Assembly: GCA_044228065.1 (NCBI GenBank) | Contig: JBGAVP010000006.1 | Coordinates: 24,077 to 88,076 of the forward strand | DNA length: 64,000 bases | Direction of reading: 5' to 3' | From: Chitinophagales bacterium | GTDB lineage: Bacteria; Bacteroidota; Bacteroidia; Chitinophagales; LD1 | Shown here: positions 39,879-54,067 of the stretch, piece by piece | Numbering within the stretch: the stretch's first letter is position 1 | Layout: every line of letters begins with the position of its first letter | Position numbers and translations under genes: made by a program | Notes under the pieces: generated by a model | The model's database searches: none | Seen by the model: only the letters and a program-made list of their open reading frames with translations | Told to the model about the DNA's origin: nothing

Positions 39879-40370
39879 TTAAAGCAATAATAATTCGCCT
39901 AGTCTAAAGAAAACCTCTTCTACCCCTAAATCTTCTTTGGCACTACAAAAGAAATCAGGTTTTGTTGGCATCATTTTCTTTACATTTTCGGTTTCTACTG
40001 CATTTAGTAAATCACATTTATTAGCAGCAATTACTAGAGGTACACCAGGTAATTTACTTTTAAGAAACGCAAGATCTTCATTCATATTTAAGAATGAAGG
40101 TGGAGCTGATATGTCTACTACATAAATGATTCCACTAGAGCCCAGAAAATAAGATTGGGGTGTATTTTGCTGACTGCTTTCACCTGCCAAATCCCAAATA
40201 ATTAAGTTTAGAATATTATCCTTAATGGTGATTTGTTTTTTATCAATTCTAACTCCAATGGTAGAAATGTATTGCTCAGAAAACCTATGATGTACATAAC
40301 GATTTACCATAGACGTTTTTCCCACATTCACATTTCCTACTAGGATTATTTTCTTACTTTGTTCAGTCAT
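39879..40370 (-). CDS. Ras-superfamily (Rab-like) small GTPase
   Basis: G1 GNVNVGKTS, a switch I YISTIGV identical to the Rab consensus, G3 WDLAGE, G4 NKCD, G5 CSAK. 163 aa. Confidence 0.8.
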   Translation of the reverse strand: MTEQSKKIILVGNVNVGKTSMVNRYVHHRFSEQYISTIGVRIDKKQITIKDNILNLIIWDLAGESSQQNTPQSYFLGSSGIIYVVDISAPPSFLNMNEDLAFLKSKLPGVPLVIAANKCDLLNAVETENVKKMMPTKPDFFCSAKEDLGVEEVFFRLGELLLL

Positions 40371-41196
40371 GATTTATGAAATGATTTTCTAGATTTAATG
40401 AGATTTGCTTTTGCACCTCGCTCGTTACATTTTTTATACCCTCTTTTAAATAATTAGTTACAAAGGCATCTGCTTTTTCTTGTAATTTAGATTTAAAGTC
40501 TGCTCCAGCTATACCAGAAACTACAAATGCCATTTTAAAAGTGTAGTAATCTAACAATAAAATTTTATTGTTTTCATATTCTATGGTGCTCAATGTCTGG
40601 TTTTGCTTATGAAAAGCATCTTCTACAAACGATTTGATGGCAGTAAGCATTCCCGCTATCATATCTTGATCTGATAAATCATTTTTAGAATAGCTGCCTA
40701 AAAGCAAACCAGAATCGTTTTGGATTACAAAAATTTCTTCGATACTGGCTTTGTTTAACTCGCTTAAAATAATGGAGGAACTATCTGCTCCAGAGAAAAA
40801 GGCTTTTACTCTGTGAATCCAAATATCTAAATCAAAAGTGGTGGAAATTTGATTATCTATAGATTCCGTTAACTTCTCGAGTTCAGCTTGTAGATATTTC
40901 TTGATAAGTTTGCCGATTATAGGATAGAGCGAATTGATAACTTCATCTTGAGAGTCTTTTAACTCGCGTTGAATAGCATCTTTCAGTTCTCCTTTAAACT
41001 CTAAACTAAAATTTTTCTTGAGGTAGTCAATTTTAGCTTGTGCAAAGGGTTCTACTTTGTTTCCGAAATTTTCTGGCACTAATAATTCATCCTTCAATCG
41101 CTCCAATTCCGTTTCGATAGAAAGACTTAATTTACGGTCATCTTCTAGTAAGATAGCTCGTAAAGTTTCTAATGCTTGTTCTTTTTCGGCAAACAT
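40363..41196 (-). CDS. coiled-coil protein with a C-terminal Roadblock/LC7 (MglB-like) domain
   Basis: The C-terminal half (IEEIFVIQNDSGLLLGSYS...MIAGMLTAIKSFVEDAF...ILLLDYYTFKMAFVVSG) follows the Roadblock strand/helix pattern. Its stop overlaps the GTPase start by 8 nt. Confidence 0.5.
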   Translation of the reverse strand: MFAEKEQALETLRAILLEDDRKLSLSIETELERLKDELLVPENFGNKVEPFAQAKIDYLKKNFSLEFKGELKDAIQRELKDSQDEVINSLYPIIGKLIKKYLQAELEKLTESIDNQISTTFDLDIWIHRVKAFFSGADSSSIILSELNKASIEEIFVIQNDSGLLLGSYSKNDLSDQDMIAGMLTAIKSFVEDAFHKQNQTLSTIEYENNKILLLDYYTFKMAFVVSGIAGADFKSKLQEKADAFVTNYLKEGIKNVTSEVQKQISLNLENHFINHD

Positions 41197-41204
41197 GAAA
41201 TTGT

Positions 41205-41537
41205 TTAAGAAGAGATTTTTTCTCCTATGTCCATGAGCATTTTACCCAATTTCTTGCGGTCTAATTTTTTCTCATCAATCTTAGCTAACTCTTCCAAGAG
41301 TTTTTGCTGATTGCTTTCCATTTTAGCATTTAGTTTTTTATCTAAATCATCTATGGCTTTGCGAACTGCCGTAAATTCTTTGTCTATAGCATTTAGATTG
41401 GTGTTTATATAATCGCGTAAATCATTAAATTCTTTATCATACTGGCGCATGTTTTGCCCGAAGATGATTTCTTTGATGGCATCAATTTTTGCAATTTCAT
41501 TTGCTGCAGGATCTGCGGATTTGTTTTCTTTTCCCAT
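41205..41537 (-). CDS. small coiled-coil protein
   Basis: 110-aa charged, heptad-like ORF immediately upstream of the Roadblock-like gene, 8 nt away. Confidence 0.5.
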   Translation of the reverse strand: MGKENKSADPAANEIAKIDAIKEIIFGQNMRQYDKEFNDLRDYINTNLNAIDKEFTAVRKAIDDLDKKLNAKMESNQQKLLEELAKIDEKKLDRKKLGKMLMDIGEKISS

Positions 41538-44289: not shown

Positions 44290-44484
44290 ATGTACAAAGG
44301 AAAAGTAAAGTTTTTTAACTCAACAAAAGGGTTTGGATTTATTTGCGACAGCAACACAGGAAAAGACATTTTCGTTCACTCTTCAGGTCTTAGAGAAGAC
44401 ATCCGTGAAGGAGATGAAGTGACTTTCGAAGTAGAAGATGGTAAAAAAGGACCAAACGCTGTAGAAGTTAAAATCGCTAGATAA
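44290..44484 (+). CDS. cold-shock protein (CspA family)
   Basis: GKVKFFNSTKGFGFI (RNP1) and DIFVHSS (RNP2). 64 aa. Confidence 0.9.
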   Translation: MYKGKVKFFNSTKGFGFICDSNTGKDIFVHSSGLREDIREGDEVTFEVEDGKKGPNAVEVKIAR

Positions 44485-44506: not shown

Positions 44507-44537
44507 AAAATGCCACTCCAAAAGGGTGGCATTTTTA
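44507..44537 (+). terminator. rho-independent terminator after the csp gene
   Basis: AAAATGCCAC-TCCAAAAG-GGTGGCATTTTT. Confidence 0.65.
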
Positions 44538-44812: not shown

Positions 44813-47800
44813 ATGGCAACAACAAAAGGACCAGAGACACCTGTAACAAAGACAGAGGATTTAAATTTAATAATGAATCGTTTTTCAGGAAAAGTTGAAG
44901 TGTTGAATCCAAGCGGTTCGGGAGTGATTTCTGCTGCAGGTTATTTTTTAGATGTATATGCCAGCACAATTAGTATCACTTTTGATAAAGCCTATTCTCC
45001 AATAGGTAACAGTATCATGCTTTCAGATGATGGTAGTTTCACATTCGATGCTACAGCTACTAATTTATCATCAGCCTCTGTAACTTTTGTAGTGCGATCA
45101 GCTAATGGTTTACCTGCTACTATTGTCTCTGGCAATGCTACCGTGAATAACATTTTCAAAAAAGGCGGTGCGTTTGTATTGCAAGTAAAGCCATACAGTC
45201 CTATGAATTTGGGTAGTGGAACATCTACACCTTCTAATAAAGTTTTAGTAAAAGGCAAAGCTATATATGATGATGGAGAGGTAGTAAAAGAAAAAAGGAT
45301 TGTTCTTTATGCTAAAAATGGGGATACTACTGATACCACGGTGCTTACACTTGAAACAGTAAAAACTCAACCCAATGGAGAGTTTAAAGTATTGGTAGCA
45401 AACACAAAGTTTAGAGATGCGTTTGCTGTTTTGGGTGATAGAGATAATAGTAATACTTGTGTAATCCCATTGGATAATGCTGGGAAGTTTAACAATAAAT
45501 TGATTTTAGTATTTCAAAATAAAATGGAAAGTGATGAGGATTGCGCTTGTACTGATAAAACGCCTCGACTACCCGATGCAGATGATTTGATAAGTCCTGA
45601 AAATAAGTATTCACAAGATATAGGAGGGAATTGTGTGAATTTTACAACACCTAACAGAAGTCTAGAAGAGTTTACTTTTTCATCTATTGTACGTACTACA
45701 GACCCGCGTGGCGAATACACTGCTATGACCAAAGAAGCCATAGCAGAAGAATGGGATGGAAATACTGCTAATACTGCAAATTTTAAAAAGTATTTAGATA
45801 AAACCTTGCGTCAGTCGCTCACCAAAAAAAATCAGTTAGAGTGGGATCATCCTGACAAAAAATTTTCCATTTATCAAGCACTCACAATTGCACATGGACA
45901 TGTACTCACTTTTAAACAAGTTTTTAAATCTGATGGTTATAGTATGGGCGATTTGGTTTATTCGCTTCCGCTTGCTCCTGGGCAAAAAAAATTGATTGTG
46001 ACCTACGATTGGAATAGAGTAGATGAAGCAACTAAAATAGATGATTTAACAGCTGAAGATAGACTAACTGCGAGCATTAGTCGTGACAGAGATATTGATG
46101 AAATTATTTCTGGTTCACTTAGTGAAGATGTAAAAGGAGGGAGTAAAAGCAAAACAAGTGGATGGAGTGTAGGTGGTGGAGTTTCTGCGCCTGCTGTTGG
46201 GCCTGTTTCGGTTTCGGTGAGTGGCGGGTATAATTCTGGTAAAGCGTCTTCTGAGTCTTGGCAGCAGTCTTCCAAAGACATGACCTCTAGTCTGCATAAT
46301 AAATTGAAAGATTCGACACAGCAAAGTTCTTCGATGTTGCGCAGTCAAAGGAATACGGTAATAGCTACTGCCAAACAAGGTGAGTCATATTCAGTTACCT
46401 CAGAAGTAGTTGCCAATCACAATCATTGCCATGCCGTTACTATGCAATATTTTCAAGTTTTGCGACATATTGTTGTAGAACAAGAATTGAGCGATGTACA
46501 AGAGTGTTTGTTTGTTCCACTAACCATAGCACCTTTTGATGCAAAAAAGGTTTTGCGTTGGAGACAATCACTTCAGAATAATTTGCGGTTAAATCGTTTT
46601 TCAAAACTAGGGAAAGAATTGCAAAAGGGCTTTGATTCCATGGAACGAATAGATAAAAATTACGTAAACTTTGATGTGCCTCCAGTAGTATCAGACAGTA
46701 AGATTCGAGAAGTTTATGGAAGTTTTAAGTTGCGTTTAAATTTAAATCGTCCACAAGATAAATCCATAGCTGATTCTCAGTTTGGGCCAGCATTTCAACA
46801 AGCCCTTCAAAGTGATAATTTCATGTCTGAAATGGTGCAGCGTTCACTGATGAATTACCAAGATGTGAATGAAGCAAATTGGACTAGTTACAGTCGTTAT
46901 TTTTCTTCGTTCAGTGTGGAGTCTATCAAGTCACTTTTTACTGGAAAATCGCAAATAGAGCGCGACACTATTTTTTATGAACAAATAGCACCTGAAATTG
47001 CTGAGAATTATGTCCAAAAATTGATGCTAACAGGTATGGCACAAAACATAAATTTTGTAGGGTTTTCAATAGATGGGAAATGGAAGAAAGGGGAAGATTT
47101 AAACATAAGGATTAATACCATTGTCCCTAAAAATGGAACTTCAATAGTTTTGAAACGTAGTGATATCCCTAATCTTCAGATTATTACTAAACTAAATGAG
47201 CCACATATAGATTCACAAGTTACTTCTGGGTATATCAATTATAGAACATCACATTATAATGGGGTTTTTACTAATTATATTTCAGGAAGTACACGTTCTA
47301 TAGATCCTCAAATAGGAGCTTTTGTTTACACTCCTTTGAAACCTGAAGAATCGTTTGATTTTAAGAAAGAAGATATTAGGCTCTCAACCCAATTGCTAGA
47401 TCACATGAATAATGAGAATTTAGAATATTACCATCATGTGATTTGGTATCATGGGATTACTCCAGATAGGCGCTATATGATGTTAGATAGAATTCAATTA
47501 GATAGCCCCGATTTTACACAAGTATATGCTGAACGCGGGGTATTGGGCAGAAGTGTGGCATCTTTGGTAGAAAATAGAATTATTGCGTTGGTTGGAAACT
47601 GTTTGGTGTTTCCTGTAGCTGCTGGCTATAACCTAGACCCAACTTATAAACTAAAAGATAGTGACACAGCCGATGAAAGTGGCATGTCTTTTAATTCGTT
47701 GTTAGAGCATTACCAACCTATTTCTGAAACTGATGGGAATTACAAACCTAGTTATAGAATTAGTATTCCTACTCCAGGTGTGTTTGCTGAAGCAGTGATG

Positions 47801-48598
47801 GGAGCTTGTAATTCTTGTGAAAAAGTAGATGACAGCCGTTTTTGGCAATGGGAAGACCACCCGATAGATGAGCCAACTGCTATCAATCCAATAGATACTA
47901 GCAGTCGTTATCAAAATCCTTTAAATACTCAAGGAAGAGATTTTTCTACACCTGTTATTAACATTCAAAATTCACCAGCAGCACCTGACCCTACAAATAT
48001 GGCTGGGGTATTTGATTTACTCGGAAAGTCAGGGACATTTAAAGATATTACTGGCACTGATGCTACCAATGCTAATGCCATGGGAGCATTGAATGCTGCA
48101 AATAGTCTTGCTAAAGCTAATGGAGATAATGCTACCAAATTAGCATCGGAAGCATTGAAAGAGGGGCTTTTTAGTCAAAACAAGATGGCTACCATGAAAA
48201 ATGCTACCAAAAATATGGCTAAAGGAGAAGATTATATTGATAGAAATTGGCCAGCAAAAGATTTTCCTGAAAAGAATAAGGAACTAAAAGAAAAATTATT
48301 CAATTCCGTATTAGGCGGAGACCCTCTGGGAGGTAAGAAAGACCCAAGTAAAAACGGTGGTAGCACCGATGACAACAATAGTGGTGGTAGTACTGATGAT
48401 GAGAATGGCGGAAGTAGTGGAGATACTGGTACCAGTAATGCAGCACCAGGGCAAAAATCATTAGCAGAAATTTTATCTGGAATGCAAGGTGAATTGGATG
48501 ATTTCAGAAATCGGTATGTACATGATATGGGAGATTACATTGCAGGTATTGATACTAGTGGTTTTCCAAACGATTCTAATCCCACTAATGTAGTATAA
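44813..48598 (+). CDS. 1261-aa protein of unknown family (no export signal), first gene of the candidate protease operon
   Basis: Long uninterrupted ORF with an N-terminal Ig/CarboxypepD_reg-like beta-sandwich region, a Gly/Ser-rich central segment, a His/Cys cluster (NHNHCH) and an acidic low-complexity C-terminal tail. No signal peptide, TM helix or T9SS CTD. Confidence 0.8.
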   Translation: MATTKGPETPVTKTEDLNLIMNRFSGKVEVLNPSGSGVISAAGYFLDVYASTISITFDKAYSPIGNSIMLSDDGSFTFDATATNLSSASVTFVVRSANGLPATIVSGNATVNNIFKKGGAFVLQVKPYSPMNLGSGTSTPSNKVLVKGKAIYDDGEVVKEKRIVLYAKNGDTTDTTVLTLETVKTQPNGEFKVLVANTKFRDAFAVLGDRDNSNTCVIPLDNAGKFNNKLILVFQNKMESDEDCACTDKTPRLPDADDLISPENKYSQDIGGNCVNFTTPNRSLEEFTFSSIVRTTDPRGEYTAMTKEAIAEEWDGNTANTANFKKYLDKTLRQSLTKKNQLEWDHPDKKFSIYQALTIAHGHVLTFKQVFKSDGYSMGDLVYSLPLAPGQKKLIVTYDWNRVDEATKIDDLTAEDRLTASISRDRDIDEIISGSLSEDVKGGSKSKTSGWSVGGGVSAPAVGPVSVSVSGGYNSGKASSESWQQSSKDMTSSLHNKLKDSTQQSSSMLRSQRNTVIATAKQGESYSVTSEVVANHNHCHAVTMQYFQVLRHIVVEQELSDVQECLFVPLTIAPFDAKKVLRWRQSLQNNLRLNRFSKLGKELQKGFDSMERIDKNYVNFDVPPVVSDSKIREVYGSFKLRLNLNRPQDKSIADSQFGPAFQQALQSDNFMSEMVQRSLMNYQDVNEANWTSYSRYFSSFSVESIKSLFTGKSQIERDTIFYEQIAPEIAENYVQKLMLTGMAQNINFVGFSIDGKWKKGEDLNIRINTIVPKNGTSIVLKRSDIPNLQIITKLNEPHIDSQVTSGYINYRTSHYNGVFTNYISGSTRSIDPQIGAFVYTPLKPEESFDFKKEDIRLSTQLLDHMNNENLEYYHHVIWYHGITPDRRYMMLDRIQLDSPDFTQVYAERGVLGRSVASLVENRIIALVGNCLVFPVAAGYNLDPTYKLKDSDTADESGMSFNSLLEHYQPISETDGNYKPSYRISIPTPGVFAEAVMGACNSCEKVDDSRFWQWEDHPIDEPTAINPIDTSSRYQNPLNTQGRDFSTPVINIQNSPAAPDPTNMAGVFDLLGKSGTFKDITGTDATNANAMGALNAANSLAKANGDNATKLASEALKEGLFSQNKMATMKNATKNMAKGEDYIDRNWPAKDFPEKNKELKEKLFNSVLGGDPLGGKKDPSKNGGSTDDNNSGGSTDDENGGSSGDTGTSNAAPGQKSLAEILSGMQGELDDFRNRYVHDMGDYIAGIDTSGFPNDSNPTNVV

Positions 48599-48601
48599 TC
48601 T

Positions 48602-49561
48602 ATGGCAGCAAACGATAATTTTTTCAATTGGGGGTATGCTATGTGTTTGGCAAAAAACGAAAAATTGCCCAATGCGATTCCCTCTGCACAGCGCATGGCG
48701 TATTATCTTAGTAATATATCAACTTCTGGAGTTGTTCTAAGAGATTACCATGAAGTAACTACTCTTACCGAATCTGAGGTTAACATTAAAACATTAATTG
48801 AGGGAATTATTAATTTGGCGATCACAGCTAAAGCAGGCGATGTAGTTACATTGTATTTCGCTATGCATGGCTACGTAGGAGAGGGAAGCACTCACTACAA
48901 AACACCCGATACAAATTTCTTACTTTTTGATGGTTTGCGATTTAGCGAACGTGAATTGTTTTTTCTTTTGAAACTGTTTGAAACTGATGTGCGAGTAAAT
49001 GTAATAATGGATGTATGCAACAGTGGTACATGGCTTACAGGCTTTCAGCGCGATTCATGTAAAGAAGAACGAGAATTTGATTTTTTTGTAAAATCATTGA
49101 AAGAAAAAGAGTCTGCATTAGCCTTTCAATTAAACCTGTTGAAACCTTATTATTTGGATAAACCATTGGCAGCTACTGTGAATGTTTTTGGTGCTATTGG
49201 TGATTTTTTAAATATAAATGATACTGTTTGTTTGGAGTATTACATTACAAAACTAAAGCTAAAGAAAGGACATTTAAATTTTACGAATCAAGAATTAATA
49301 AAGGAATTAAGAGCGGTAGCATTTGATGTAGTGCTTAGTTTGCCCACAGATAAACCTGGAAGAAATCTTTGGCATACTTACTATAAAGATTATTCTGGGT
49401 CAGTACTAAAATGTATCATTCCCGATATAATGTCTGTTCCAAATTTTGATAATACCAATCCTTATCACTTGCAAGCAATGCAGGCAATTATGCCCAAACT
49501 AACACAACTAGGAGAAAATCATTATAAGTATAAACACAATAATGTTTTTGCTTTAAACTAA
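48602..49561 (+). CDS. caspase/metacaspase-like (clan CD) cysteine protease, paralog 1
   Basis: VTLYFAMHG (His89, nt 48866-48868) and VIMDVCNSG (Cys139, nt 49016-49018) match the metacaspase pattern hfSGHG ... iiDsCHSG with about 50-aa spacing. The preceding block NWGYAMCLAKN...AIPSAQRMAYYL resembles the caspase beta1/helix1. Confidence 0.65.
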   Translation: MAANDNFFNWGYAMCLAKNEKLPNAIPSAQRMAYYLSNISTSGVVLRDYHEVTTLTESEVNIKTLIEGIINLAITAKAGDVVTLYFAMHGYVGEGSTHYKTPDTNFLLFDGLRFSERELFFLLKLFETDVRVNVIMDVCNSGTWLTGFQRDSCKEEREFDFFVKSLKEKESALAFQLNLLKPYYLDKPLAATVNVFGAIGDFLNINDTVCLEYYITKLKLKKGHLNFTNQELIKELRAVAFDVVLSLPTDKPGRNLWHTYYKDYSGSVLKCIIPDIMSVPNFDNTNPYHLQAMQAIMPKLTQLGENHYKYKHNNVFALN

Positions 49562-49570
49562 ATAACAAAG

Positions 49571-50539
49571 ATGGCTGAAGGAGGACAATTTTACAACTGG
49601 GGTTATGGGCTGTGTATAGCTATTAATGATGGTTTACCCAATGCTATACCTTCGGCAAATAATATGGCCAATATGCTATGGAAGCGAAAATCTGGTAGTT
49701 TGGGATTGCAAAGTGATTACTATTCGGTTACTACACTTTATGATGCTGCAGCTACTTATGAAAATGTAATTACTGCCATTTTAGATTTAGCTGCAAAAAG
49801 TATTGCTGGTGATATTGTAACCATTTATTTTGGGTTGCATGGAGAAGCGAGAAGAGGCGAAAATAGAGTTGAAAATTTCAACCGACTTCTTTTGCATGAT
49901 TATAAATTCTTTACTGAAGATGAGTTGTATGCTTTGCTTCGTTTGTTCTCTGAAGATGTACGAGTAGTGGTAGTGATGGATATTTGCCAAAGTGGAACCT
50001 GGTTGAATGAGCTTACTATCAAAGATGATTGTGTTTTGGAAAAAGTATGTAACAGTATGATTAATAAATCGGTGAGTTATAATTGTAGCAAGAGTTTTCA
50101 AAATACGATGGTAAAATTAAAGCCCATGATACTTGCTAGCCCATTGGTATCCACGGTGACTATAATAGGTGCCATTTCTGACTCGATTAATATTTCTGAT
50201 TCCGATTGTTTTGCTAGCTTCTTAACTCAAACTTGGAGTAAAGACGGAAACTTGTGGAAAGATATGGAAAGCCTAATTAGGCGAGTGAGAGAGGTAGCAT
50301 TTGAAAGAATAGTAGATAAGCCTGTGGAAGTAAGTGGTGGTTGTACTCGGTGGAAAATGTATTATGTTGACTATTGTGAACTTGTGTTGAAATGTCCAAT
50401 ATCAGAGGATTACGCCCCTAGTTATGATTACAATAACCAACACCATCAGGATGCTATGCGTCATTTTTTACCAACTATAAATTTTCTTGGACCACACCAC
50501 GATAAATATAGTAGCTACAAGGCCTTTTGTGTAAACTAA
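49571..50539 (+). CDS. caspase/metacaspase-like (clan CD) cysteine protease, paralog 2
   Basis: It aligns with paralogs 1 and 3 over its full length. VTIYFGLHG and VVVMDICQSGTW are conserved. Confidence 0.65.
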   Translation: MAEGGQFYNWGYGLCIAINDGLPNAIPSANNMANMLWKRKSGSLGLQSDYYSVTTLYDAAATYENVITAILDLAAKSIAGDIVTIYFGLHGEARRGENRVENFNRLLLHDYKFFTEDELYALLRLFSEDVRVVVVMDICQSGTWLNELTIKDDCVLEKVCNSMINKSVSYNCSKSFQNTMVKLKPMILASPLVSTVTIIGAISDSINISDSDCFASFLTQTWSKDGNLWKDMESLIRRVREVAFERIVDKPVEVSGGCTRWKMYYVDYCELVLKCPISEDYAPSYDYNNQHHQDAMRHFLPTINFLGPHHDKYSSYKAFCVN

Positions 50540-51560: not shown

Positions 51561-52229
51561 TTACATTCTCAAAGAAAACTTCAATCCAATAGAAGTTTGA
51601 GGGGCGAGGAAAGTAGTATTGAACTGAATCTCTGGTTCAATATGCAAAGAAAGTTTATCAGTCATATCGTAATGGAATAGATGTCCATCTACAGCAGCAT
51701 CTACTAAATTTAATCCATACCACAATGCCAAACATATTGCTGAAATATCTAGGTATCGTTTATAATAATTACGATAGGTTATGAGCGTTTCAGATTGAGT
51801 GATTCCATTGTAAGAACCTACTGTTGCAGGGTTGCCATCTACTTGTAGACGGTAAGCATTTCTTGCTCCGTAAAAGTTTCTCCCCGTATAATATACTGCA
51901 CAACCTATCCCTGCAAAACCAGCATAAACTATAGGGATTTTCCAATATTTTTTATTGTAAGCTTGCCCTAAACCTGGTAATATAGCAGACATCCAAACTG
52001 CTTTAGAAGCACTATGCTTTTTTTCTTTCTTATTTTTTGAAAGAGTAGTGTCTATACTGCCTGCCGTGAAAGAGTTGGGAATAGAATCGGTCTTATTAAT
52101 CGTAAAAGATAAAGTATCCTTTTTGGGAATTTCTAGAATAGAATCAGTTGTAATAGACTGCGCTTGCACAAATATTGCAACTATTAAAAATGCCAACAGC
52201 ATCCCAATTCTTTTGCTGATTTCAGCCAT
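51561..52229 (-). CDS. DUF5683-domain membrane protein
   Basis: The core AVWMSAILPGLGQAYNKKYWKIPIVYAGFAG is typical of DUF5683, downstream of parB as in many Bacteroidota. The ATG at 52229 gives a signal-like N-terminus. The ORF track extends to a TTG at 52292. Confidence 0.7.
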   Translation of the reverse strand: MAEISKRIGMLLAFLIVAIFVQAQSITTDSILEIPKKDTLSFTINKTDSIPNSFTAGSIDTTLSKNKKEKKHSASKAVWMSAILPGLGQAYNKKYWKIPIVYAGFAGIGCAVYYTGRNFYGARNAYRLQVDGNPATVGSYNGITQSETLITYRNYYKRYLDISAICLALWYGLNLVDAAVDGHLFHYDMTDKLSLHIEPEIQFNTTFLAPQTSIGLKFSLRM

Positions 52230-52292
52230 TCTCTTATAATTTCTTGTAAGAATACTCTTGTAGTTTAAGGAAAATGTGATGTTGTATTTCAA

Positions 52293-53195
52293 TTACAATC
52301 CAGCTAACAATTCAGTTAAGCGTTCTAAATCGGCATCGCTAAAGAACTTAATCGCTATTTCACCTTTCCCTTCTTTGGTTCTTACAATATTTACCTTAGT
52401 ACCTAAAGCAGAGCCTATTTGGTCTTGCATTTTCCGGAGAAATACATCCGATTCAGATTTCTTGGCTGCTAGTTGTATTTTTTTAGGTTTTTCAGACACT
52501 GTGCGGACTAATTCTTCTGTTTGTCTTACGGAAAGCCCTTTGTCTAGCGTTTCTTTAAACAAGGCTAAAAGAGTAGGTAAATGGTCTATAGAGAGCAAAG
52601 CCTTAGCATGCCCCATAGTCAATTTATTATCACGAACAGCAGCTTGAATAGAAGGAGGCAATTTAAGCATTCGTAAAAAATTGGTAACAGTGCTTCTGTT
52701 TTTTCCTAAACGCTCTGCCAGCTTATCTTGCGTAATATCGCATTCATCCATTAATCTTTTGTAGTTGATAGCAATTTCTAAGGGATTTAAATCTTCCCGT
52801 TGAATATTTTCAATCAACGCTATCTCTATAGACTCTTGATCAGAAGCAGTACGTACATAAGCGGGCACTTCTGTTTTGCCTGCCAATTTTGAAGCACGTA
52901 AACGTCTTTCTCCTGCTATTAACTGGTATTTGTTATTCTCTATTTTGCGAACTGTTATCGGCTGAATAACACCATGTATTTTTACAGAATCTGCAAGCTC
53001 TTTTAAGCTCTCCTCTTCAAAGGTAGTTCGTGGTTGAAAAGGATTAACTTCAATTTGGTTTAAGGGTAAATACAACACTACCCCAGCCTGATTTGTAATG
53101 GGATTAACAGTAGTTTTTTTTACTTCTACATTTTTATCATCTGTGAGCAAGGCACTTAGTCCTCTGCCCAATACTTTTTTCTTGTTATCAGTCAT
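52293..53195 (-). CDS. parB: chromosome partitioning protein ParB
   Basis: ParB box GVIQPITVR, the GERRLRA motif and an HTH (TQDKLAERLGKNRSTVTNFLR). Confidence 0.92.
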   Translation of the reverse strand: MTDNKKKVLGRGLSALLTDDKNVEVKKTTVNPITNQAGVVLYLPLNQIEVNPFQPRTTFEEESLKELADSVKIHGVIQPITVRKIENNKYQLIAGERRLRASKLAGKTEVPAYVRTASDQESIEIALIENIQREDLNPLEIAINYKRLMDECDITQDKLAERLGKNRSTVTNFLRMLKLPPSIQAAVRDNKLTMGHAKALLSIDHLPTLLALFKETLDKGLSVRQTEELVRTVSEKPKKIQLAAKKSESDVFLRKMQDQIGSALGTKVNIVRTKEGKGEIAIKFFSDADLERLTELLAGL

Positions 53196-54003
53196 TATCT
53201 ATTAAGTTAAATTCTTTGTTTTCTTCTGGAATATTGGTGGCATTATTTTTTTGTAATAATTCACGAACCATGTTCATGTAGTTAATAGCTCCCTTGCTTT
53301 CTGCATCATACAATATGGCAGGCTTACCAAAACTAGGTGCTTCTCCTAAACGGGTATTTCTATGAATAATTGTCTCGTACACAATATTTTCGAAATGTTT
53401 TTTTATTTCGTCTACTACTTGATTAGAAAGGCGTAAACGGGGGTCATACATAGTCAACAAAATTCCTTCTATTTCTAAATCGGGGTTTAATCTGCTTTGT
53501 ACTATTTTAATGGTGTTTAATAATTTACCTAAACCTTCTAAAGCGAAATATTCACATTGAACGGGTATGATAACAGAGTCAGAAGCAGTCAATGCATTTA
53601 CTGTAATTAAACCCAATGAAGGAGAGCAATCAATGATAATATAATCGTATTCTCCTCTGATTTTCTCCAACATTTTTTTGAAAATCATCTCGCGATTGGG
53701 TTGGTTAATTAGTTCTATTTCTGCTCCTACCAAATCTAAGTGAGATGGCAATAAAAATAGATTGGGAGTTTCTGTTTCCAGAATTATATCTTGAGGCTTT
53801 ACTTCATTAATTAAGCATTCATACAAGCTCGTTTTTACTGTTCGAACATCAAAGCCTACTCCAGAGGTAGCGTTGGCTTGTGGGTCAGCATCTATCAACA
53901 AAGTTTTATATTCTAATACGGCTAAACTAGCGGCTATATTTATAGCACTAGTAGTCTTGCCCACCCCACCTTTTTGGTTTGCTAAAGTGATAACTTTTGC
54001 CAT
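53188..54003 (-). CDS. parA: chromosome partitioning ATPase ParA/Soj
   Basis: Deviant Walker A NQKGGVGKTT, LLIDADPQ and IIIDCSPSLG. It overlaps parB by 8 nt. The ATG at 54003 is preferred over the one at 54030. Confidence 0.92.
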   Translation of the reverse strand: MAKVITLANQKGGVGKTTSAINIAASLAVLEYKTLLIDADPQANATSGVGFDVRTVKTSLYECLINEVKPQDIILETETPNLFLLPSHLDLVGAEIELINQPNREMIFKKMLEKIRGEYDYIIIDCSPSLGLITVNALTASDSVIIPVQCEYFALEGLGKLLNTIKIVQSRLNPDLEIEGILLTMYDPRLRLSNQVVDEIKKHFENIVYETIIHRNTRLGEAPSFGKPAILYDAESKGAINYMNMVRELLQKNNATNIPEENKEFNLIDND

Positions 54004-54067
54004 TTTCTTCTCCGTTTTATTATTTTTCAATCTGTTTAATTTAAGTTGAAATGAATCGGCTTTAAAA

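Follow-up and report, generated by a model that had tools for sequence, protein, structure and literature searches.

A signal-less giant protein beside three caspase-like genes in a Chitinophagales bacterium, and its widespread family with apparently exchangeable enzyme partners

Proteolytic activation is established for aerolysin and epsilon toxin, as is processing by a cysteine protease domain for TcdA/B and MARTX. A caspase-like protease adjoining a cytosolic pore former is the known layout of bacterial gasdermin loci. Zhang et al. (2012, PMC3482391) describe caspase-like and papain-like peptidases of polymorphic toxins, which stand ahead of the C-terminal domain or in its place, as releasing enzymes, toxins or both. 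Here we describe a locus to be set beside these systems. It lies in a stretch of 64,000 nucleotides from a Chitinophagales bacterium (assembly GCA_044228065.1, contig JBGAVP010000006.1, positions 24,077 to 88,076 of the forward strand), which we call the window. It consists of a gene for a protein of 1261 amino acids (aa), hereafter the big protein, and of three caspase-like genes immediately downstream. As judged by comparison with its relatives, the big protein belongs to an unnamed family built on one plan: variable N-terminal modules, a conserved trunk of ~930 aa and an exchangeable enzyme, which is either fused at the C-terminus or encoded just downstream. The four genes, in coordinates of the window, are as follows.

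44813..48598, + strand: open reading frame (ORF) of the big protein, 1261 aa, a short form within the unnamed family (from the ORF, its relatives and an upstream stop)
48602..49561, + strand: caspase-like gene 1 (clan CD, C14-like), 319 aa, with an H89/C139 dyad
49571..50539, + strand: caspase-like gene 2, 322 aa
50552..51523, + strand: caspase-like gene 3, 323 aa

The ORF translates into exactly the 1261-aa sequence quoted in the initial annotation, which had been made from the letters of the DNA alone. Relatives with 77% and 57% identity cover it over its full length, so it is a real gene. An in-frame stop lies 4 codons 5′ of the ATG; thus the ORF cannot be extended to include a signal peptide. 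The N-terminus is hydrophilic, the maximum Kyte-Doolittle mean over 10 residues being 0.92 within the first 40 aa, and the first 45 aa of ~115 full-length relatives contain no hydrophobic stretch like that of a signal peptide. These three observations bear out the initial annotation in its statement that the protein has no export signal.

The family is large. An initial search gave 120 relatives of 1000-2200 aa, nearly all of them annotated as 'hypothetical'. An exhaustive phmmer search with the trunk gave 3014 clusters at 50% identity (E ≤ 1e-3), 1316 of which matched at E ≤ 1e-30, and a scan of one genome per species detected a member in at least 573 species. The matches listed included Myxococcaceae, many Bacteroidota, Streptomyces, Micromonospora and five Legionella species, as well as Acidobacteriota, Verrucomicrobiota, Chloroflexota, Gemmatimonadota, Firmicutes and a Heliobacteriaceae metagenome-assembled genome (MAG). 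Plasmid-borne copies were found in Psychrobacter, Polaromonas, Streptomyces, Bacillus, Nostoc and the archaeon Haladaptatus. The region common to the family corresponds to residues ~146-1170 of the big protein, and the most distant members keep a hairpin module (see below) and residues 830-1190.

Archaeal records of trunk relatives came from a Nitrosopumilus MAG (L061) and from the Haladaptatus plasmids. They reflect either true transfer between domains or, for the MAG, mis-binning.

Among 2.9 million viral contigs there was only 1 relative. A 20-kb GenBank record named 'Bacteriophage sp.' and marked as unverified (L089, MT835996.1) carries a trunk homolog with a DUF2272 tail, a sodium:solute symporter and a DUF3311 protein. 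None of the nine ORFs scanned from it matched a phage family in Pfam, and it is probably a bacterial contig. A phage origin of the family was rejected on these grounds: a single relative on viral contigs, and a sole 'phage' record with a bacterial-type transporter and no recognized phage gene.

Searches with the big protein itself gave little. It had no Pfam match at E ≤ 0.1, and none in PADLOC or among PDB sequences. Its sole NCBIfam match, to TIGR04134, was weak and sub-threshold and covered residues 138-206, in the second N-terminal module. When family profiles, including one made from the hairpins only, were compared with the PDB, the matches amounted to low-complexity noise (for example, huntingtin and spidroin). 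Scanning 23 hairpin modules singly against Pfam at E ≤ 10 gave only weak matches to glycine-zipper-type families (C19orf12, DUF1269). A literature search, limited in reach, found no description of the family. The initial annotation had seen no recognizable catalytic family in the protein, and the empty Pfam, PADLOC, PDB and family-profile searches agree with this.

Export by the type IX secretion system (T9SS) was considered and rejected, because no Por_Secre_tail or other T9SS domain was found in the Pfam scan. The 1261-aa protein has neither a sortase motif nor a T9SS tail.

The structure of the big protein was predicted in two AlphaFold2 (AF2) models, of residues 1-1200 and 236-1060, from 77-sequence alignments; the mean predicted local distance difference test score (pLDDT) was 73-74. 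The parts of the protein, all on the + strand, are as follows.

44870..45211, + strand: N-terminal β-sandwich 1, residues 20-133, which varies among relatives (AF2, pLDDT ~80-88; pilin/Ig-like in Foldseek)
45239..45517, + strand: N-terminal β-sandwich 2, residues 143-235, prealbumin/CarboxypepD_reg-like (AF2, Foldseek, weak TIGR04134)
45518..45712, + strand: conserved Cys-bearing segment, residues 236-300, DCxC...PRLPD...YSQDIGxxCVNFTTPNR (conservation; pLDDT low to moderate)
45872..46522, + strand: elongated β-hairpin module, residues 354-570 (AF2 pLDDT 82-97 in both models)
46121..46279, + strand: uncharged Gly/Ser-rich segment between the hairpins, residues 437-489, a candidate membrane-insertion element or cleavable loop (composition and periodicity; pLDDT low)
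46535..47992, + strand: conserved alpha/beta trunk domain or domains, residues 575-1060, with motifs NLExYHxxIW and GACNSCEK (pLDDT mostly 80-97)
48056..48313, + strand: long helices, residues 1082-1167, stalk-like or coiled-coil-like (AF2)
48314..48595, + strand: disordered acidic/Gly-rich linker and short C-terminal helix motif, residues 1168-1261 (AF2, comparison)

Both models agree on two very long hairpins, formed by residues 360-387/392-418 and 508-534/540-569. Two motifs that are invariant in the family, LPLAPGQ and NHNHCH, lie where these two confident hairpins turn. In the first model, the Gly/Ser-rich segment between them forms a third hairpin that extends the sheet (437-457/469-489). 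Positions that are at least 90% conserved or invariant in the family are C274, P298, G375, G379, S384-P389, N535-H540, H864, W878, G997, C999 and W1013; G148, T185, G189 and F191 are conserved in the second sandwich. Foldseek comparison of the N-terminal sandwiches gave Gram-positive pilin and transthyretin-like domains (TMt up to 0.45). For residues 575-1060, there was no PDB structural match in Foldseek at E below ~3e-3. The C-terminal helix motif ILSGM..LDDFR..YVHDM is common to the big protein and its 77% and 57% relatives, and residues 1168-1261 stand where relatives bear a fused enzyme domain.

The two models and the family comparison agree with the modular architecture that had been read from the translation, with module boundaries that were essentially right. 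The two N-terminal sandwiches appear as predicted, with strands at 20-133 and 143-234 (pLDDT ~80-90), and the motifs quoted earlier from the Cys-bearing segment, the core and the C-terminal region turn out to be the most conserved positions of the family. In the proposed AlphaFold and Foldseek check, the core matched no known enzyme or structural family with confidence. For the label 'CarboxypepD_reg-like' of the second module, the weak TIGR04134 match and the presence of CarboxypepD_reg (PF13620) in the N-terminal heads of 5 of 82 relatives are indirect evidence; the module itself had no Pfam match.

Both ends of the family vary. Other N-terminal heads carry a helix-hairpin-helix domain of the ComEA type (18 of 82), and individual relatives have ricin-type or tectonin lectins, which may belong to the heads. 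Among the C-terminal tails, of which 81 were examined, 16 Pfam families were found, including the following.

Peptidase_C70 (papain-like): 28 of 81 tails
PETase-like alpha/beta hydrolase (lipase-like): 10 of 81 tails
Amidase_2: 6 of 81 tails
Peptidase_C39_2: 5 of 81 tails
Tyrosinase: 2 of 81 tails
GH25, M23, OmpA, Amidase_6, PG_binding_1 and M12-type metallopeptidase (Reprolysin_4/_5): single cases among the 81 tails

C11, pesticin and LysM are also present in relatives, and the Legionella forms carry C70 followed by Amidase_2. The last ~45 residues of an Anaerolineales relative (L024:403-4242) look LysM-like by eye, which would fit the cell-wall theme of the ends. In short forms, the enzyme can be a separate downstream gene, for tyrosinase (L029 and L015) or Amidase_2 (L032); the same kinds of enzyme are fused elsewhere.

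Two tandem paralogs were found in 13 loci (L022, L035, L062, L065, L070, L071, L074, L078, L081, L083, L086, L050 and L060) from Actinomycetota, Proteobacteria, Firmicutes and others, for example at L022:9971-19740. In L022 and L078, a long paralog (~1750-1880 aa) with a PETase-like tail accompanies a short one (~1400 aa) with a Peptidase_C70 tail; the long paralogs of L065 and L074 also have a lipase-like tail. Eight of the 13 tandem loci encode a conserved protein of ~95 aa between the paralogs, and a ninth copy is encoded in L080, where it directly precedes a single paralog. The two copies of this small protein that were scanned (L022 and L078) had no Pfam match. The tandem paralogs look like a two-component version of the system.

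In the window, the place of the enzyme is taken by the three caspase-like genes, which are 38-47% identical to one another. A profile of these genes and their relatives matched PDB 3bij at E = 2.3e-16 and metacaspases-1, -4 and MCA2 at E = 8e-9 to 2e-5. His89-Gly90 and Asp137-x-Cys139-x-Ser-Gly (S141/G142) were invariant in a 12-sequence alignment, and the His/Cys dyad was kept in all 16 copies from seven lineages and also in the L009 and L013 copies. By dyad and profile, the three products count as caspase-like peptidases of clan CD. The window copies themselves remained below the Pfam Peptidase_C14 and NCBIfam cut-offs, with only sub-threshold C13 and caspase_w_EACC1 matches; 3 of 12 related copies reached Peptidase_C14 (9.5e-10), which also had precomputed matches in L093 and L094. 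The C-terminal half of these proteins, ~170 aa, is family-specific.

In eight separate Bacteroidota lineages (the window, L001, L006, L009, L013, L093, L094 and L095), diverged to 33-77% identity to the query, the big gene is followed by an array of one to four tandem caspase-like genes. The big proteins encoded before these arrays are short forms of 1226-1380 aa without a fused enzyme domain. The subfamily was seen only beside the big gene, in 16 aligned copies and three more in L009/L013. A metagenome scan added no further members, a word-index protein search with gene 1 gave 2 matches only, and no relative with a fused caspase domain was found. Because relatives carry other enzymes in the same place, fused or separate (C70, amidase, lipase-like and tyrosinase), the comparison places the caspase-like genes in the 'enzyme slot' of the family, as a split-off enzyme module. 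Their products may act on the big protein, act with it or be delivered by it.

The first array gene in two of these lineages (L093:4837-5874 and L094:9699-10766) has D-C-C-Y-T-G instead of D-x-C-x-S-G. This variant suggests that there are two subtypes within the arrays.

The initial annotation had listed an effector, a sensor or scaffold, or a substrate of the downstream proteases as possible roles of the big protein. The downstream genes are indeed linked to the big gene, and the family comparison favors a scaffold or an effector trunk; nothing points to a sensor.

The big gene and the three caspase-like genes are separated by 3, 9 and 12 nucleotides and start after a terminator, so they make one unit and are tightly packed in one operon. 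The limit of this unit on the 5′ side is as follows.

44290-44484, + strand: cold-shock-domain gene, 64 aa, PF00313, directly upstream of the big gene
44507..44535, + strand: terminator-like hairpin with a 12-bp stem, 3′ of the cold-shock gene, the 5′ limit of the four-gene unit

What the trunk might do is suggested by its shape. Foldseek with the entire model ranked Gram-positive pilins highest, which aligned to the N-terminal sandwiches; pore forms of aerolysin and hemolysins matched more weakly. When the N-terminus was left out, nearly all of the top 50 PDB neighbors were β-pore-forming toxins. Aerolysin pores were the main neighbors (E = 8e-5 to 5e-4, probability 0.2-0.72), and the others were epsilon toxin, lysenin, parasporin-2, Cry23/Cry51, LSL, anthrax protective antigen (PA), CDTb, iota Ib and hemolysins. 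The insert between the hairpins keeps its composition across the family: Gly 25%, Ser+Thr 26% and charged residues 6%, compared with 7%, 14% and 22% outside it. Uncharged residues also run on for longer there than elsewhere in the same proteins, the median of the longest run being 32 residues in the insert and 13 in the background.

From this we tentatively rank first the possibility that the big protein resembles a toxin: once released, it would attach to foreign cells by its N-terminal modules and perforate them, with exchangeable enzyme partners. The hairpin module with its uncharged Gly/Ser-rich insert would enter the membrane and form a pore in the manner of aerolysin. The protein would leave the producer by a non-classical route, bind a foreign cell through the N-terminal modules and then oligomerize. 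Through the breach in the membrane, the enzyme partners would reach that cell's envelope or interior. The cysteine proteases, caspase-like here and most commonly C70 in relatives, would process or release the assembly, or would themselves be the payload. The lectin, peptidoglycan-binding, LysM and OmpA modules and the envelope-acting enzymes fit an extracytoplasmic target. Pores, cleavage and the direction of action are all things that we infer from such comparisons.

Several observations weigh against a released pore former. The TM-scores between trunk and toxins were only 0.05-0.19, with a root-mean-square deviation of ~20 Å; the toxin likeness is therefore one of architecture and not proof of homology, and the match may reflect the long β-hairpins alone. 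The β-type amphipathic moment of the insert was not above that of shuffled sequences (z = -0.27) and its alternation was weak (z = 0.54). Instead, when residues 446-486 (window 46148-46270) and the same segment in 77 relatives were analyzed, Gly-x-x-x-Gly spacing was enriched (mean z = 1.34; 56% of the sequences above 1.64), and no other Gly spacing was. Such a glycine-zipper-like periodicity is not predicted by a β-hairpin model. The 81 tails lacked nuclease, deaminase and ADP-ribosyltransferase toxin domains. No secretion route, export domain or conserved secretion-system neighbors were found in the heads, the tails or 86 loci, and neighbors in these loci were unconserved except for the enzyme genes, the second paralog and the ~95-aa protein. 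No immunity gene emerged from neighbor clustering, which diverse immunity proteins could escape. In Myxococcus xanthus and a closely related locus, a lone copy lies among shared housekeeping neighbors, which would be unusual for a polymorphic toxin.

The composition of the insert, its GxxxG spacing and the faint glycine-zipper echoes in Pfam make a membrane-active element plausible, acting in either a β-hairpin or a glycine-zipper mode.

One plasmid copy, on Polaromonas pH8NP2 (L088, 6924-10535), lies among TIR, PIN, DUF262, HigA and type I restriction genes, a setting like that of a defense island. This setting was not seen at most other loci.

The direction of action could also be reversed. 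The main rival, which we regard as rather unlikely, is an inside-out lysis or suicide module. The big protein would stay in the cytoplasm until cleaved by a protease, and the trunk would then perforate the inner membrane of its producer, following the logic of gasdermins or of holin-endolysin pairs. Peptidoglycan or lipid hydrolase modules could pass through and lyse the cell, in abortive infection or in developmental lysis. This would suit the family-wide lack of an export signal (~115 full-length relatives) and of visible immunity genes, and also the partners, which are mostly directed at the cell wall (Amidase_2, GH25, M23, OmpA, PG_binding, LysM) and most commonly a cysteine protease. A caspase-like protease adjoining a suspected pore former resembles the layout of bacterial gasdermin loci, and the neighbors of the plasmid copy L088 (TIR, PIN, DUF262 and type I restriction genes) are in line with such a module. 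The N-terminal lectin and Ig-like modules, however, point outward, and no gasdermin fold or PADLOC match was found. Tyrosinase partners are ill-suited to lysis, the Myxococcaceae copy has a stable housekeeping neighborhood, and a defense-island context is missing at most loci.

The big protein might not act on membranes at all. It could be a rigid scaffold in a fiber, a surface or a matrix that displays binders and enzymes, with hairpins that are architectural and caspase-like proteins that are co-inherited proteases of matrix or maturation. The pilin and adhesin domains among the best whole-model matches in Foldseek are consistent with this, but these matches are confined to the variable N-terminal sandwiches, and with the N-terminus removed pore-forming toxins alone remain as neighbors. 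Modules for anchoring to the cell wall (OmpA, PG_binding_1 and LysM) occur in relatives, 18 of 82 relatives have helix-hairpin-helix DNA-binding heads, and the statistics for an amphipathic hairpin are weak, all of which a scaffold would accommodate. On the other hand, the query has no export signal, sortase motif or T9SS tail and its relatives have no signal peptide, and the invariant uncharged Gly-rich insert is left unexplained. We consider a scaffold unlikely.

The tight operon with one to four proteases would also agree with a dedicated protease substrate, that is, a bait like α-2-macroglobulin (A2M) or a store of pro-protein with bioactive fragments. So would the exposed low-confidence loops, which often have Lys/Arg just ahead of that Gly-rich segment (GGSKSKTSG in the big protein, GGSxxKTxG in its relatives). 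But there is no similarity to A2M, MG or thioester domains, and the trunks of most relatives are paired with non-protease enzymes or with none, so that this reading is improbable.

Least credible is a spike or virion protein derived from a phage or contractile injection system, piercing envelopes with the NHNHCH hairpin tip as a metal-bound apex: the conserved HxHxH-type motif at the hairpin turn and the peptidoglycan-hydrolase partners, which resemble virion-associated lysins, speak for it, but it is largely refuted by the distribution (1 relative in 2.9 million viral contigs), the lone 'phage' GenBank record being unverified and having no recognized phage gene, tail, baseplate and sheath genes not being conserved near the 86 loci, and matches to viral structures being confined to the Ig-like N-terminus.

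Around the four-gene unit, a DUF5683 membrane protein and then ParB-like and ParA-like genes, these two named from their translations only, follow on the opposite strand (51561-54030, - strand). Judging from these names, the unit may adjoin a chromosome partition locus. In L001, which has the 77%-identical relative, the neighbors of the unit are entirely different; thus the unit has moved between genomes. A horizontal-island signature in the window was ruled out, as the G+C content is flat at ~0.35. Further upstream lies a cluster that is unrelated to the big gene (39879-41537, - strand). It encodes a Ras/Roc-family GTPase of 163 aa (PF00071, E = 5e-30), with close, co-oriented genes for proteins of 277 aa and 110 aa that have no Pfam match.

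The family has >3000 clusters at 50% identity in hundreds of species, with many marine and soil Bacteroidota among its carriers, yet it has no representation in Pfam, NCBIfam, PADLOC or the PDB. A signal-less trunk that resembles pore toxins, joined to a swappable enzyme, suggests a new way of delivering an enzyme across a membrane or of killing from within. The boldest interpretation, which we hold to be doubtful, is that the family is an unrecognized superfamily of cytoplasmic, protease-gated giant pore formers with envelope-degrading or proteolytic enzymes, that is, a device for programmed lysis or killing. If so, such a device would be spread over >10 phyla, with a holin- or gasdermin-like trunk that includes a fold unseen in solved structures and with enzymes like endolysins or executioners. 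If a new way of delivery or killing were confirmed, bacterial toxins or cell-death effectors would gain a major class, the orphan caspase-like arrays that recur in Bacteroidota would be accounted for, and ~480 aa of the trunk would stand as a domain whose fold is apparently new. With the enzyme fused in some relatives and split off in others, the family offers a natural experiment on function.

How the locus stands to the described systems can be stated for each of its components. The three downstream genes share His-Gly, Asp-x-Cys-x-Ser-Gly and profile similarity with GSU0716-type caspase-like proteins and metacaspases. They differ in staying below the cut-offs, in their own C-terminal half of ~170 aa and in having been seen only beside the big gene.

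As in bacterial gasdermin operons, a signal-less protein and suspected pore former lies beside at least one caspase-like protease. However, there is no gasdermin among the Foldseek neighbors or in the Pfam and PADLOC results, and the big protein is ~5 times larger. The proteases here are small and stand-alone, without sensor repeats, and in relatives of the big protein unrelated enzymes can take their place.

Binary and AB toxins (anthrax PA, CDTb and iota Ib; large clostridial toxins) likewise combine a pore-forming or translocating component with a separate or fused enzyme, and PA, CDTb and Ib gave very weak Foldseek matches to the trunk (E = 0.03-0.2). Unlike in those toxins, there is no homology, no signal peptide and no sign that the caspase-like proteins dock to the trunk.

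With polymorphic toxin systems, the family shares one conserved trunk, highly variable C-terminal enzyme domains and a sporadic occurrence across phyla. It differs from them in having no known trafficking domain or secretion signal (Sec, type V to type VII secretion systems, PVC, MuF, PrsW and others) and no recognizable immunity gene. Its payloads can be separate genes, and in place of nucleases or deaminases they comprise hydrolases directed at the envelope, lipase-like enzymes and tyrosinase.

What the big protein, as modeled, has in common with aerolysin-type toxins (aerolysin, epsilon toxin/ETX-MTX2, lysenin and parasporin-2) is long antiparallel strands with a low-charge, Ser/Gly-rich insertion between them, and putative N-terminal receptor-binding modules. 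Neither the protein, nor the precomputed Pfam matches of 120 relatives, nor the 23 hairpin modules, nor two PDB profile searches gave a sequence or profile match to them. The TM-scores do not exceed 0.19, and the insert shows GxxxG instead of alternating periodicity. The big protein is 3-5 times larger, with an extra domain of ~480 aa without a known fold and with enzyme modules attached, and neither it nor its relatives have a signal peptide. In brief, the big protein works most like a protease-associated β-pore-forming toxin or a polymorphic toxin, and is a member of neither group.

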